This document shows, one piece after another, positions 20,869 to 28,538 of a stretch of 64,000 nt of DNA (positions are counted from its first letter, which is position 1; each line of letters starts with the position of its first letter). Under the pieces are notes generated by a model. It saw nothing but the letters and a program-made list of their open reading frames with translations. It did no database searches and was not told the origin of the DNA. Source of the DNA: Candidatus Sungiibacteriota bacterium. Its GTDB lineage: Bacteria > Patescibacteriota > Minisyncoccia > Sungbacterales > HO2-52-23. The stretch spans positions 57,233 through 121,232 of the forward strand of contig CP066690.1 of assembly GCA_016432465.1 (NCBI GenBank), given 5' to 3'. A program made the translations under genes and the position numbers.

Positions 20869-21206
20869 CTCCCATTCACCTCCTTTCTGAAGAACTAAAT
20901 TCCCGTGGCGGAATTGCCACGGGAATTATTTTCCAAAAGTTTTTGATTAAAACCTTCTTAGTTTAGACAATAATTTCCATGGCAAAATATTGCAAAACAC
21001 CGCAACGACGTGCGGTTCGCTTCACATTATTAAACATGGAACAAAGTTGCTGCATAATAATTGATCTTGGGTGCTAGCAATGGTATTCCGGCCCGCGCTT
21101 CGCTGAAGCTTCGGCGAGGCGAGCAAACCCTATCCAGCACATAACAAGTTATGTACTGGACTCCGTTCTCCCGCTTTCAGCGGGATCACTTCGCTTTCCC
21201 AACATT

Positions 21207-21325
21207 ACTGGCGTACCCTACTTTCCCAGGCGCGGATTGGCACCAAGTATCATTGGGCCTAGATGCTTTCACTACTGAGTTCGGAATGGAATCAGGTGGA
21301 TCACATCTAGGTAAAACACCAGCAA
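21207..21325 (-). rRNA. rrf: 5S ribosomal RNA
   Basis: reverse complement matches 5S core CCACCTGAttCCATtCCGAACTCAGtAGTGAAA...GCGCCTGGGAAAGTAGG; terminal helix pairs. Confidence 0.85.
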
Positions 21326-21713
21326 AGTTCGGAATGCGAAACCAAACTTAACTTGGCGAGTCTCACCATATATTTTTGAGAAACTTCTCAAAAATTTATA
21401 GGCGGGCAGGTAATTAATGATCTATTAGTATCGCTCGGCTAAACGCATTGCTGCGCTTACACCTGCGACCTATCAACGTAGTCATCTTCTACGGATCTAA
21501 TACTAGCGGACATCAGAAATCGGAGATCGGAAATCAGAAAAGTTCTGACGTCTGATTTCTGAAATCTGAAGTCCGCTAGTTCGATACCTAATCTTGAGGC
21601 GTGCTTCGCACTTATATGCTTTCAGCGCTTATCACAACCGAACATAGCTACCCAGCGGTGCTCCTGGCGGAACAGCTGGTACACCAGAGGTTCGTTCATC
21701 CCGGTCCTCTCGT

Positions 21714-22354
21714 CACATTTTCTTCTATCACTAGAAGTGTAGACTATATCTTTGCCCCTTTGGATTTTGATCTAAAGTCGGGCATCGGCATATTATAATC
21801 AAGAATTTTCTTGACTATCCGTCCCGGCAATGCCGGGAACAAGTCGTTACGGGGTCATATTGACAAATTCTAGTATATCATGTAATAATGATATCGCCGA
21901 AATGAAAGGAGGACTCATGGCCCGAGAGTTGGTCGTTGACATGTTCTATTCAACGATTAAGACACCATGGATTACCTGCGATAAGTGTGGCTTTAAAGCA
22001 AAACAGTCAGATCTCAGATATGACGGATATTATAAGGATCATTCTGGTTTTAACCACCATTTTCACTGTCCAAGGTGTTATGAGTCTATTTTAATACCAA
22101 GCCTTTTATAGGCGGTATCATCAACCATTGCTCCTGACTTCCCGGGAGCATTTTTTTGTCAATTGACTTCCCACGGTATTAACTTTAGTATGTTTGATCG
22201 AAGTTCTCGGACCGCGAGATTTCTTCGCAAACTAAAGCATCCATGGCTAAGCCGAGTTTGACTCGGCCGCCATCCCGTCCCGCTTTTAGCGGGATTAGGG
22301 ACCGTTATTAGCCAAATTGTCATCGCGCATTACTGCGCGAAGTAGCAATACTTT
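21714..22354 (-). mobile_element. group-I-like intron in 23S at sarcin-ricin loop (exons rejoin to CCUAGU|ACGAGAGG)
   Basis: 5' exon ends in U, insertion ends in G, removal restores conserved CCUAGUACGAGAGGACC; 641 nt. Confidence 0.6.
21917..22111 (+). CDS. small zinc-ribbon protein encoded antisense inside 23S intron
   Basis: TTGACA-17-TAATAA promoter at 21860-21888, RBS aaaggagg 21905-21912, ATG 21917, CDKCG...CPRC motifs, hairpin+T7 terminator 22150-22178. Confidence 0.45.
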   Translation: MARELVVDMFYSTIKTPWITCDKCGFKAKQSDLRYDGYYKDHSGFNHHFHCPRCYESILIPSLL

Positions 22355-22509
22355 ACTAGGGACGACCCCTCTCAAGTATCAACGCCTGTGGTAGATAGGA
22401 GACCAACCTGTCTCACGACGGTCTGAACCCAGCTCGCGTGACTTTTTAATCGGCGAACAGCCGAACCCTTGGGACCTTCTCCAGCCCCAGGATAAGTCGA
22501 GCCGACATC

Positions 22510-23130
22510 GTATGTTCGCTTCGCTCACAACGCGATACCAATATACGAATGGCATGCGAATGATACGAATTGCGAATTTCCTCTATTACTAGAGGCATGG
22601 ACTATATCTTCATCCCCCTGCATGCCTGCGGAAGGAGCTCGCGTATTATATTTTGCTTAAAGCAAAATATCTTTCCGAACTTTATTCGGAAAAGTCTCTA
22701 CGGGGTTAATGCTTTTTTTATAGAAGCTCTGGTTTCAGCAAACTTAGCGACATCTTGAATAGCTTGCTGAATTTCAGTTTCAATAATATCAACCGGTCGT
22801 TTCCCTGAATCAATCTCCGCATCAGTCCAATTTCTACGACCAATCGGGTCTTCCAATTGTTGAAGTCGTGCAACGAGCCTTGACGATGCCTCGCTCAACA
22901 AAAGATTATTTTCTTCCAATTGATTCAGAAGTTCTTGGTTGTTTAATTGTAATTCTTCTTTCATATGCATAACTTCCCTCGGTATTATCCTATCAAATTT
23001 GGTTCAAAAACTCAATAGGATTTCACCGATATTAGCGAGATTTTTATGCAGGATTACTCCTGCAGCACCCCGATGATCGTGATGGCCAGTCACGTGCAAA
23101 CTAGTTAACCAGAGAACTAGCTAACTAATA
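22510..23130 (-). mobile_element. intervening sequence in 23S near the conserved ...CACCUC/GAUGUCGG... peptidyl-transferase segment (intron class undetermined)
   Basis: conserved GGCACCUC and GAUGUCGGCUC exon blocks separated by ~620 nt; boundaries lack canonical group I/II termini. Confidence 0.5.
22698..22970 (-). CDS. small coiled-coil protein encoded within 23S intervening sequence (sense to rRNA)
   Basis: 90-aa ORF with RBS gagggaag; heptad-rich; no HE motifs. Confidence 0.35.
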   Translation of the reverse strand: MHMKEELQLNNQELLNQLEENNLLLSEASSRLVARLQQLEDPIGRRNWTDAEIDSGKRPVDIIETEIQQAIQDVAKFAETRASIKKALTP

Positions 23131-23511
23131 AACTATTGTTGAGGTGCCGAACTCCGCCGTCGATATGAACTCTTGGGCGGAACTAGCCTGTTATCCCCAG
23201 AGTAGCTTTTGTCTGATAATCTTTGGCCTTGTTCTAGAAAGCGATAAATACCCACACCTCGGAACTGAATCCGAAGCGTGAATAATTACCATGGCCATCG
23301 GTTCACTAAGCTCTGCTTTCGCACCTGCGCGGGATATCCCCCTTGCAGTCAAGCCGGCTTGTGCCTTTACACGTCCACCCCGATTTCCATCCGGGGTAAG
23401 CCGACCTTAATAGACCACTCCATTACTTTTTGGGAGTGTAGTGCCCCACCAAAACTGCCCACCAGACACTGTTCCAGTTGGGCTTCACCGCGAAGCCCAC
23501 AGTTAAGTTTA

Positions 23512-27304: not shown

Positions 27305-27450
27305 TGGGGGAATATATCAGTTTATAGTTAAAGGTTTTAAGTTTAAGTTAAAAGTTATTAGTTTAAGTTAGCGTTAACTTAAACTTTAAACTAAAAACTT
27401 AAACTTAGGAGGCCGTTAGGCCGTAACCTAAAACTAAAAACTGACATTCT
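27305..27450. repeat. AT-rich nested-palindrome element inside 23S (near E. coli ~200)
   Basis: ~95% identical to copy at 27843-27975. Confidence 0.65.
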
Positions 27451-27507
27451 TTTCTTTTCCTCCGCTTACTGAGATGTTTCACTTCAGCGGGTATCGCGCC
27501 AAGCACT

Positions 27508-27695
27508 CATTTCTATACACTTGACAAATTTATAAATATAAACTATGCTAAGATCAACCAAGGGGGTTTGGTTACAACCACCGATAGCCTGGCCCGGTCC
27601 TACCGGACTTCCCAGGCCGCTGGTTGGTTAGACCCCCCTGCCACAGGTTTTCCCTGTGGCCTCTTTTTTGAGTACAGAAATGAGTGCTCGGCGAA
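27508..27695 (+). promoter_or_regulatory. antisense promoter-terminator cassette within 23S 5' domain expansion helix
   Basis: IR cgccaagcactcatttct / agaaatgagtgctcggcg flanks TTGACA(27531)-17-TATGCT and hairpin ccacaggttttccctgtgg + CCTCTTTTTT (27636-27668); no ORF with RBS. Confidence 0.4.
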
Positions 27696-27842
27696 TGCGT
27701 TTTACGCAAACGGGTTTCCCCATTCGGACATCGCCGGATCAAAGGTTGCTCGCCACCTCCCCGACGCTTATCGCAGGCACGCCACGTCCTTCATCGCCTC
27801 CGGAACCCTAGGCATCCACCATATGCTCTTAATTAATTCTGT

Positions 27843-27975
27843 TCATAGTTAAAGGTTCTAAGTTTAAGTTAAAAGTTATTAGTTTAAGTTAGCGTTAACT
27901 TAAACTTTAAACTAAAAAACTTGAACTTAGGAGTCTCGCTGTAAGCGGGACGAAACCTGAAACTAAGAACTGATT
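27843..27975. repeat. AT-rich nested-palindrome element in 23S 5' leader
   Basis: near-identical to 27305-27450 copy. Confidence 0.65.
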
Positions 27976-28538
27976 TTACCTGCCCGCCTATAAATTTTTG
28001 CTTATTAGCCAAAAAATTATGGGGCGGGAATACAATTTTTTACTTCGACTATGCTCAGAATTCTAATACTGAGCCTGCCGAAGTATACCTGTTTATTCAG
28101 TTTTCAAGATACTATCCTTATCTGCCATCGGATATCCACCTGCTATAAACGGATATCCGACGGCAGGTAAACCCGCGCACTAATTCTGAAATGGTTTTGT
28201 CTCAACTGAGATTATTTCCGCGGTGTCGCCTCTGTCAAGCTAAACTTGACGTCGGCTCCATCAGTACCAACACTAAAGCCTCAATAGAATTAGTGCGGGG
28301 TCAATTGTCCGTTTCCAAATTTTCTGCGCCTGATGGCTTAAAAATTTGGACGGAACAATTGAAAAACCGCGTAAGTACGCGGCTCTTTCACACAGTATCT
28401 AAAAACTGTAGGCTAAATTTCAATCATTTTTTGAGCCGCTTTATTTTTAAATTGTAGACGGGTTTTCATTGTTATCGCAATTATACTCCCGGCCCCATCT
28501 TGCTGTCAACAATATCTGTGGATAAGCTGTCAAATACA

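Follow-up and report, generated by a model that had tools for sequence, protein, structure and literature searches.

Among 348 23S rRNA genes of candidate phyla radiation (CPR) bacteria, 82% carry insertions of ≥100 bp, with maxima of 16 insertions and of 5,750 bp of inserted sequence per gene (Tsurumaki et al. 2024, PMC11270868). Group I introns make up 45% of CPR 23S insertions and are biased to the 3′ half of the gene, LAGLIDADG_1 genes are concentrated at sites 1917, 1931, 1952, 2593, 2604, and 2657, and short insertions at the sites of intervening sequences (IVSs) have been proposed as RNase III substrates (PMC11270868). The rRNA insertions of CPR bacteria have also been reviewed (Tsurumaki et al. 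2022, PMC9297842; Brown et al. 2015, as cited there), and unlinked rRNA genes are known in Patescibacteria (Brewer et al., bioRxiv 10.1101/705046). Elsewhere, the rRNA insertions of Coxiella burnetii are conserved in all strains (PMC4990558), and nuclear rDNA group I introns carry homing endonuclease genes in both sense and antisense orientations (PMC9548176). Here we analyze a 23S-5S rRNA operon within a 64-kb stretch of contig CP066690.1 from an uncultured, ultrasmall “Candidatus Sungiibacteriota” bacterium (referred to below as the window; all positions are counted from its first nucleotide). With a probability of about 0.88, we read the locus as the 23S-5S operon of a Parcubacteria-group CPR bacterium, with three group I introns and with mobile hairpins at helix tips.

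Classical 23S IVSs occupy helices 9, 25, and 45 and are found in Salmonella, Yersinia, Campylobacter, Leptospira, and alphaproteobacteria. The group I introns of C. burnetii are at sites L1917 and L1951. Repetitive extragenic palindromic (REP), Correia, and Rickettsia palindromic elements are short, noncoding hairpin repeats that are present in several copies per genome at tolerated sites. We are highly confident of the anatomy of the 23S-5S locus in the window, the features of which are collected in Table 1.

The 23S-5S operon and its genomic setting

The 23S gene matches the bacterial large-subunit (LSU) model of Rfam (LSU_rRNA_bacteria, RF02541) on the minus strand at 1691.5 bits, compared with a gathering threshold of 50, in a scan of the whole 64-kb window, and it is colinear with the Escherichia coli 23S gene. 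BLAST against E. coli rrlH gave 16 colinear blocks, from E. coli position (Ec) 12 (27831) to Ec 2884 (21424), and a MAFFT E-INS-i alignment of the window gene with that of E. coli and 22 related 23S genes spans Ec 1 to 2903, placing Ec 1 at 27843 and Ec 2903 at 21407. An earlier reading, made from the letters of this DNA without database searches (the sequence-only reading), had described colinear 23S blocks on the minus strand and a gene enlarged to ∼6.4 kb by introns, IVS-like hairpins, and palindromic elements. BLAST and MAFFT agree on the colinearity, and the measured length is 6,437 nt. The Rfam LSU alignment comes to an artificial stop at 23046 because the model is unable to bridge two large insertions. 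Standard rRNA callers cut the gene at this position, dropping the last ∼400 nt of exon sequence, and gene callers lay spurious open reading frames (ORFs) over the 23S gene.

Alignment to the Rfam LSU model and to the E. coli 23S gene mapped the insertion coordinates. There are fourteen insertion sites, with a summed insertion length of ∼3.5 kb; expressed as the preceding E. coli position and the inserted length in nucleotides, the insertions are 154:38, 168:130, 229:128, 283:73, 362:45, 544:53, 653:98, 1173:60, 1874:162, 1931:1171, 2205:167, 2402:51, 2500:631, 2656:641, and 2790:58. All 11 interruptions that had been proposed from the sequence (∼140, 200, 300, 550, 1170, 1860, 1931, 2200, 2500, 2656, and 2790) were recovered within ∼30 nt, and three sites (Ec ∼362, ∼653, and ∼2402) are additional to that list. 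Sites 140, 550, and 1170 had been equated with IVS helices 9, 25, and 45, which is correct for helices 25 and 45 but not for site 140. In the cmscan structure line, helix 9 is intact and the “140” insertion (model positions 152 to 178) sits in the loop of the hairpin that follows it, which on our own reading of that line we take to be helix 10; one relative has 61 and 68 nt inserted at the same place. Seven insertions, amounting together to ∼3.0 kb, reach the ≥100-bp cutoff used in PMC11270868, a total comfortably within the range published there.

A 5S gene follows the 23S gene, as had been predicted. No 16S gene was found in the 64-kb window either by an Rfam scan at gathering thresholds or by BLAST with E. 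coli 16S, so that the 16S-free stretch covers 36 kb upstream and 21 kb downstream of the operon; the sequence-only reading, which had described a 23S-5S operon without 16S and excluded a 16S gene within 20 kb upstream, is therefore upheld over the whole window. ARAGORN found no tRNA genes in the window. The candidate operon promoter lies directly downstream of a terminator-like hairpin (28556-28540) of the upstream gene. The flanking complementary pair reported earlier as 17 nt is present, and its length is 24 bp without mismatch (27999-27976 with 21413-21390). We predict that the operon uses its own promoter and is transcribed apart from the 16S gene, and that its primary transcript is bracketed by the 24-bp stem, which by analogy with other bacteria could be the entry site for RNase III. 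With no adjacent 16S gene, the 23S-5S operon is unlinked from 16S, and its own transcription signals, with promoter function predicted, suggest that it is independently transcribed. It is probably the only one in the genome.

The order 23S-5S-ORF-ftsW, on one strand, is found in ∼60 of 80 related loci. The FtsW protein encoded beside the operon is 64 to 71% identical to those of metagenome-assembled genomes of “Candidatus Sungbacteria” or other members of the Parcubacteria group, and other neighboring genes, encoding VirD4/TrwB-like ATPases, a PA14 protein, and an MscS-like protein, also fit this group. Judged by these sequences, the host is a Parcubacteria-group CPR (Patescibacteria) bacterium; it is present in sequencing runs SRR12113383 to SRR12113433. 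Full-length 23S genes among the related loci (n = 22) span 2.9 to 6.6 kb, and sites 283, 544, 1173, 1723/1739, 1931, and 2593 are recurrent insertion sites in these relatives. Eight related loci have a same-strand 16S gene 5 to 9 kb downstream of 23S-5S-ftsW; part of the clade seems to share an rRNA gene order that is reversed and interrupted. On the ftsW side of the window no 16S gene is present across 18.7 kb; the host must carry its 16S gene either >18 kb past ftsW or in another part of the genome. On the other side, ∼3 kb upstream of the operon, positions 30892 to 34317 contain two adjacent VirD4/TrwB-like coupling-protein ATPase genes, one with a treble-clef zinc finger.

Large insertions at Ec 1931, 2500, and 2656

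The three large insertions are, on the evidence of their sequence and core structure, group I introns (L1931, L2500, and L2656). Alignment to E. coli set their boundaries, given that a U must precede the 5′ splice site. All three have the AAGAUAUAGUC core with a P9 hairpin after it, and in each a P1 helix with U·G at the 5′ splice site can be read from the sequence. The exon and guide strands of L1931 form P1 (UUAAAGU/GCUUUAA) and P10 (AGCGC/GCGCU), while the L2500 guide, CAUCG-GGGUGCU, forms P1 (GGCACCU/GGGUGCU) and an adjacent P10 (CGAUG/CAUCG). P1 of L2656 is UAGU/GCUA, with GCUAC invariant in nine homologues, and no P10 was found in the sequence of this intron. The catalytic core (J8/7-P7) and helices P2 to P9 are recognizable, with covariation examined for the L2656 family alone: an alignment of nine L2656 introns has 64 consensus pairs, and compensatory changes occur in 26 of these. 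Of 53 related loci in which site 2656 is covered, 12 have an intron there, each ending in G. In the window, the terminal G is present in L1931 and L2656 and absent from L2500.

Matches to the group I intron model (Intron_gpI, RF00028) were 34.1 bits (E = 4e−6) for L1931, 31.7 bits (E = 7e−6) for L2500, and 23.2 bits (E = 0.002 to 0.007) for L2656. Two of the three therefore pass the cutoff of E ≤ 1e−4 applied in PMC11270868. The three introns sit in universally conserved functional sites, and their removal, presumably by splicing, would be needed for a working ribosome.

The 187-amino-acid ORF in L1931 is, by its sequence, a homing endonuclease gene. Its product matches PF00961 at 93.5 bits (cutoff, 23.1), contains a LAGLIDADG motif with acidic residues that reads LGWITGFVDGEG, and has as its best match among solved structures I-PanMI (E = 8e−47), along with matches to the I-OnuI family. 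It is the sole ORF in the locus with domain support, in agreement with the sequence-only reading. L1931 is likely to have spread because it carries this gene. A hairpin at 24316 to 24410, just upstream of the J8/7-P7 core of L1931 (P8 by position), contains the end of the LAGLIDADG ORF and consists of ATCAGA/ATCGGA-type repeats, the same as those of the helix 25 and helix 98 hairpins. In relatives, the L2500 and L2656 introns also encode LAGLIDADG proteins. Window L2500 has a nonhomologous 90-codon ORF instead, for which Pfam, PHROGs, and NCBIfam gave no family match, and loop L6 of window L2656 has 288 nt of unrelated sequence where relatives have a homing endonuclease gene. L1931 would then have kept its endonuclease gene, and L2500 and L2656 would have lost theirs.

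Two small ORFs lie antisense to the introns, each within a cassette with its own putative expression signals. The cassette in the P9.1 loop of L1931 has a promoter-like site at 23966 to 23994 (10/12 consensus positions), GGAGG at 24018 to 24022 (5 nt before the ATG), a 69-amino-acid ORF at 24028 to 24237, and a terminator consisting of a hairpin (24242-24256) and a T-run to 24262. The cassette in loop L6 of L2656 has a promoter-like site at 21860 to 21889 (11/12, with TG), GGAGG at 21908 to 21912 (4 nt before the ATG), a 64-amino-acid ORF at 21917 to 22111, and a terminator at 22129 to 22150 followed by T7, and it exactly fills L6 at the place of the LAGLIDADG gene of relatives. An exhaustive HMMER search found six homologues of the 69-amino-acid protein (70 to 112 amino acids; 41 to 51% identity over the full length), with the family consensus M.F.DL..GDHFVLPNH...LEVF.K...PVIKL, and no 23S or 16S match was present in the three contigs of these homologues that were retrieved. 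The sequence evidence makes it very likely that the 69-amino-acid ORF is a real gene. The 64-amino-acid protein has a CxxC...CxxC pattern and weak PHROG zinc-ribbon matches, and a homologue search with it found none.

Further searches with the two small proteins gave little. Word-index homology searches returned no match for either ORF, and nothing usable was found in Pfam, PHROGs, or NCBIfam for the small ORFs or for the neighbors of their homologues. AlphaFold2 models of the 64- and 69-amino-acid proteins had low confidence (pLDDT of 61 and 54, respectively), and Foldseek searches with the models returned generic zinc-ribbon matches alone, with E values of >0.3. An HNH-like interpretation of the 64-amino-acid protein was dropped, as its motif spacing is too short and no profile matches. 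Several other ORFs in the locus translate the antisense strand of conserved rRNA and are seen again in relatives. The earlier statement that most ORFs in the locus are spurious therefore holds for most of them but is slightly too strong, given two antisense ORFs with a promoter-like site, GGAGG, and a terminator.

Hairpin insertions and palindromic element A

The smaller insertions fold as long hairpins or branched stems, with z scores of −4 to −10 relative to shuffled controls, and in the regions that were folded they are predicted tip extensions of existing helices. Tandem Repeats Finder showed that the hairpin arms are arrays of 6- to 8-nt units, each mirrored by a complementary array in the opposite arm. 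At helices 25 and 45, a known IVS helix coincides with an extended stem of this kind. The insertion at Ec ∼283 is found in every relative examined and thus represents a lineage-wide expansion. An Rfam scan of the 5′ half by E value returned only microRNA-precursor look-alikes, i.e., generic hairpins. The approximately eleven further insertions at the tips of variable helices may be tolerated expansion segments, or they may be excised by RNase III as in classical intervening sequences.

Several of these hairpins are related to each other. Element A is a Y-shaped palindrome of ∼90 to 125 nt, of which three copies (Ec 229, Ec 1874, and leader) are 90 to 97% identical and two are diverged. The rRNA operon contains four of the five copies in the window, placed at helix tips or at the junction of the processing stem and helix 1, where the leader copy fits exactly between the 5′ arm of the stem and position 1 of the 23S gene. 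As in miniature inverted-repeat transposable elements, there are several near-identical noncoding copies at unrelated sites. The Ec ∼1874 copy was recovered in an independent assembly. No element A was found in the 80 related loci, in which the window elements matched only conserved exon parts; at the element A sites, relatives have no insertion or an unrelated one, mostly shorter, with one relative having a longer insertion at Ec 1874. A metagenome scan with a degenerate 30-mer of element A gave no match in a collection that does not include the host organism. Element A would thus be specific to the lineage, with several of the hairpins arising as copies of it that also reached the operon leader and an ordinary intergenic spacer. 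Because copies occur in the leader and in the spacer, spread at the DNA level is suggested.

The copy outside the operon affects the annotation of a neighboring gene: the listed start of the rpe ORF (ATG at 17482) reads through the rpiB-rpe palindrome. The true start is likely to be an in-frame TTG at 17398, as the Pfam match begins at residue 34.

Shared hairpin sequences are present in the 23S genes of some relatives. Locus L058 has a hairpin common to Ec 1585 and Ec 2790 (L058:6157-6288 and L058:8797-8928; 91% over 126 nt) with terminal inverted repeats of 17 to 20 nt, locus L007 has three copies of a hairpin sequence of its own (L007:2144-2201, 2606-2645, and 3721-3768), and in L069 (2245-2352 and 2990-3097) and L048 shorter stretches of 26 to 52 nt are shared between different 23S helices. 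From these sequences, within-genome spread of rRNA hairpin inserts seems to be general in the clade. A long, imperfect hairpin with 55-nt arms at 43473 to 43585, intergenic and upstream of an 886-amino-acid ORF, has no sequence relationship to the rRNA elements. If mobile hairpins are the correct explanation, mobile DNA, and not slow local growth, is what drives rRNA “expansion” in these bacteria, and the spread of a palindromic DNA element would, if confirmed, be a route to expansion-like hairpins in bacterial rRNA.

Table 1. Features of the 23S-5S locus and related elements in the window, in order along the minus strand (Ec, E. coli 23S position; z, folding score relative to shuffled controls)
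Feature	Position	Strand	Description
Candidate rRNA operon promoter	28480..28509	−	TTGACA, 18-nt spacer, TATAAT; 12/12 consensus matches
Second promoter-like site, leader	28211..28238	−	TTGACA, 16-nt spacer, AATAAT; 11/12, consensus match only
Processing stem, 5′ arm	27976..27999	−	AAAAAUUUAUAGGCGGGCAGGUAA; perfect complement of 21413-21390
Element A, leader copy	27845..27975	−	Y-shaped hairpin; −40.1 kcal/mol, z −7.3; 96.6% over 89 nt to the Ec 229 copy
23S rRNA gene	21407..27843	−	6,437 nt including all insertions; Rfam, BLAST, MAFFT
GC-rich branched insertion, ∼170 nt	27506..27687	−	Replaces loop of helix after H9 (Ec 154-168); z −9.8
Element A copy, Ec ∼229	27317..27444	−	−54.2 kcal/mol, z −10.3
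Insertion, Ec ∼283	27190..27262	−	Occupied in every relative examined (26-355 nt)
Extra sequence, Ec ∼362, 45 nt	27043..27087	−	Remodelled part of domain I
Hairpin insertion, helix 25	26808..26860	−	Arms of ∼7-nt repeats (“family B”); z −8.2
Hairpin insertion, Ec ∼653	26595..26692	−	Arms of 8-nt tandem repeats (AGCUUYUU and complement); z −7.5
Hairpin insertion, helix 45	26016..26075	−	Classical IVS site; arms of 7-nt repeats; z −6.8
Element A copy plus GC stem, Ec ∼1874 (helix 68 tip)	25160..25321	−	92% over 104-124 nt; z −10.2
L1931, predicted group I intron	23932..25102	−	After U1931; 1,171 nt; core AAGAUAUAGUC; ends in G
LAGLIDADG homing endonuclease gene (by sequence)	24349..24912	−	187 amino acids, single domain, inside L1931
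Putative antisense cassette, L1931 P9.1 loop	23966..24262	+	Promoter-like site, GGAGG, 69-amino-acid ORF, terminator
Diverged element-A-like hairpin, Ec ∼2205 (helix 79 tip)	23492..23658	−	z −7.7; no insertion there in 22/22 relatives
Insertion, Ec ∼2402, 51 nt	23242..23292	−	Unique to the window among aligned sequences
L2500, predicted group I intron	22511..23141	−	After U2500, peptidyl-transferase center; 631 nt; core AAGAUAUAGUC
Putative ORF in L2500	22698..22970	− (sense)	90 amino acids, coiled-coil-like
L2656, predicted group I intron	21714..22354	−	After U2656, sarcin-ricin loop; 641 nt; ends in G
Putative antisense cassette, L2656 loop L6	21860..22157	+	Promoter-like site, GGAGG, 64-amino-acid ORF, terminator
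Hairpin insertion, Ec ∼2790 (helix 98 region)	21522..21579	−	“Family B”-like, ∼7-nt repeats; z −8.1
Processing stem, 3′ arm	21390..21413	−	Directly adjoins 3′ strand of helix 1
5S rRNA gene	21205..21324	−	RF00001, 68.2 bits (threshold, 38); model positions 1-120 (full length)
Element-A-like palindrome, rpiB-rpe intergenic spacer, outside the operon	17399..17493	−	80% over 81 nt; flanking genes by Pfam

Alternative explanations and relation to described systems

The anatomy of the locus, the homology of its parts, its synteny, and the core structure of its introns are observed directly, and several points weigh against the reading that we have built on them. What happens to the transcript (splicing, cleavage by RNase III, and retention or loss of the hairpins) and how element A moves are our inferences from the DNA. 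All three intron matches are below the Rfam gathering score of 50; large loop insertions break the alignment to RF00028. Helix names, including those of the helix 68 and helix 79 tips, follow E. coli numbering and are to be taken as provisional. No target-site duplication can be read at element A, the flanks of which continue the palindrome, and no partner transposase was found, although no search aimed at one was made. The last base of L2500 (22511) is A, or C in an alternative register, while four homologous L2500 introns end in G. The splice sites of L2500 are fixed by its P1 and P10, which allow no register ending in G, and the guanosine-binding pair in P7 looks canonical by eye; from established group I chemistry, this combination of a canonical P7 with a terminal A implies that exon ligation should be impaired. 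Look-ups of ORFs across the 3′ junction in independent assemblies, made to recheck the terminal A, gave no match. This A is either a sequencing or population variant, the mark of a splicing-impaired intron, or a case of noncanonical 3′ splice-site use. Unless it is an error, this terminal-A intron in the peptidyl-transferase center would be a test case for noncanonical 3′ splice-site use, in a gene that is probably the only 23S gene of the genome.

The missing terminal G could also be read as a sign of an rRNA pseudogene in decay, or of a misassembled or chimeric contig, with a functional 23S gene elsewhere; the loss of endonuclease genes from two introns points the same way, and repeats of ∼100 nt within the gene could mislead short-read assemblers. 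We consider this explanation highly improbable. The exons are complete and colinear and have 76 to 92% identity to the same two nearest relatives (L004 and L007) in all seven blocks, with the ranking of relatives constant across blocks, and the peptidyl-transferase and sarcin-ricin exon sequences that flank the introns are intact. Synteny is kept in dozens of relatives, and Logan assemblies from other sequencing runs are 100% identical over 25371 to 24294, a segment with the helix 68 hairpin, one exon, the L1931 5′ junction, and the LAGLIDADG gene, and over 21498 to 18664, which covers the 23S 3′ end, the stem arm, 5S, and ftsW. The sequence-only reading had named misassembly or chimerism as what would overturn it, and the uniform exon identity and identical independent assemblies give no sign of either. 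CPR genomes, moreover, usually have one rRNA copy (PMC9297842, PMC11270868). For the hairpins, two fates compete within the preferred reading. They may be classical IVSs, excised by RNase III without religation and leaving the mature 23S rRNA in many pieces, an explanation to which we give slightly less than an even chance: two insertions are exactly at the classical IVS helices 25 and 45, all have long, nearly perfect stems of 30 to 50 bp, and the same fate has been proposed for short CPR insertions at IVS sites (PMC11270868), but cuts at 11 sites would produce about 12 rRNA fragments, and the insertion at Ec ∼283, seen in every relative examined, and the branched GC-rich insertion after helix 9 look more like retained expansion segments. 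Retention of the hairpins in mature rRNA as surface expansion segments, growing by replication slippage within stems, is a serious but less than even prospect. The predicted lengthening of existing helices at their tips, the occupation of some sites throughout the clade, and the mirroring of each 6- to 8-nt tandem arm by its complement, the signature expected of compensatory slippage, are all consistent with it; local slippage alone, however, cannot produce copies that are nearly identical at unrelated helices, the leader, and the spacer, and AT-rich perfect duplexes of 40 to 50 bp are good RNase III substrates.

Chance could account for the two antisense ORFs in intron loops, with coincidental matches to promoter, Shine-Dalgarno, and terminator signals, some of them overlapping intron helices. 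The −35 hexamers are indeed within intron stems P6 and P9.1, one terminator hairpin is a hairpin of the sense RNA too, and consensus scans lead to an expectation of ∼12 promoter-like matches by chance in the region; the 64-amino-acid ORF has no detectable homologue, and the structure models are of low confidence. We nevertheless regard chance as unlikely, since the 69-amino-acid ORF has six full-length homologues, with no rRNA match in the three contigs retrieved, and since each ORF has, within a nonconserved loop, a promoter-like site, a GGAGG placed 4 to 5 nt before its ATG, and a hairpin followed by a T-run. No comparable antisense GGAGG-ORF was found in the 23S genes of 22 relatives. A wider proposal that unites the two sets of observations is that genome-specific palindromes repeatedly colonize 23S helix tips and the junction of the stem and helix 1, and that emptied intron loops host antisense small genes with their own promoters; we put this forward tentatively and hold it to be rather doubtful as a whole. 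Were it true, the small genes would be transcribed against the sole rRNA operon, and their mRNAs would have a built-in antisense partner in the sense intron RNA; confirmation would mean that group I intron loops in a bacterium are able to house antisense genes with transcription of their own.

Outside the CPR, the closest analogue is the 23S gene of C. burnetii, which has an IVS at helix 45 and two group I introns near the peptidyl-transferase region (PMC4990558). That gene differs in having three insertions, with an S23p ORF in the IVS and other intron sites, compared with fourteen insertion sites in the window gene. The helix 25 and helix 45 hairpins, whose extended stems are of a type that RNase III cleaves, resemble classical IVSs, but the window has many more sites, arms of 6- to 8-nt tandem repeats, and one element common to several sites. 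Like REP, Correia, and Rickettsia palindromes, element A is short, noncoding, hairpin forming, multicopy, and at tolerated sites; unlike them, it has four of its five window copies within the rRNA operon. Coding genes opposite the rRNA strand in peripheral loops of group I introns recall nuclear rDNA introns (PMC9548176), although the genes there encode eukaryotic His-Cys box endonucleases, while those of the window are bacterial ORFs of 64 to 69 amino acids with no endonuclease domain and with bacterial promoter, Shine-Dalgarno, and terminator signals.

The architecture of the locus is already documented for CPR bacteria, including introns at site 2657 and unlinked rRNA genes. Nonadjacent 16S and 23S genes are as described by Brewer et al. 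(bioRxiv 10.1101/705046), who list Patescibacteria as an unlinked clade. In common with the CPR 23S genes of PMC11270868, the window gene has multiple insertions, 3′-half group I introns at 1931 and 2657 (the sarcin-ricin-loop intron L2656 corresponding to site 2657 of that study), single-domain LAGLIDADG_1 genes beside ORF-less versions, and short nonintron insertions at the helix 25 and 45 IVS sites, and its total of 3.5 kb is below the maximum of 5.75 kb. Three features of the window are not in the main text of PMC11270868: identical hairpins across helices and leader, intron-loop cassettes in antisense, and an intron with no terminal G. As far as the texts searched show, palindromic elements common to helices and leader, antisense intron-loop cassettes, and a terminal-A intron may be new additions to what is known of CPR rRNA operons.

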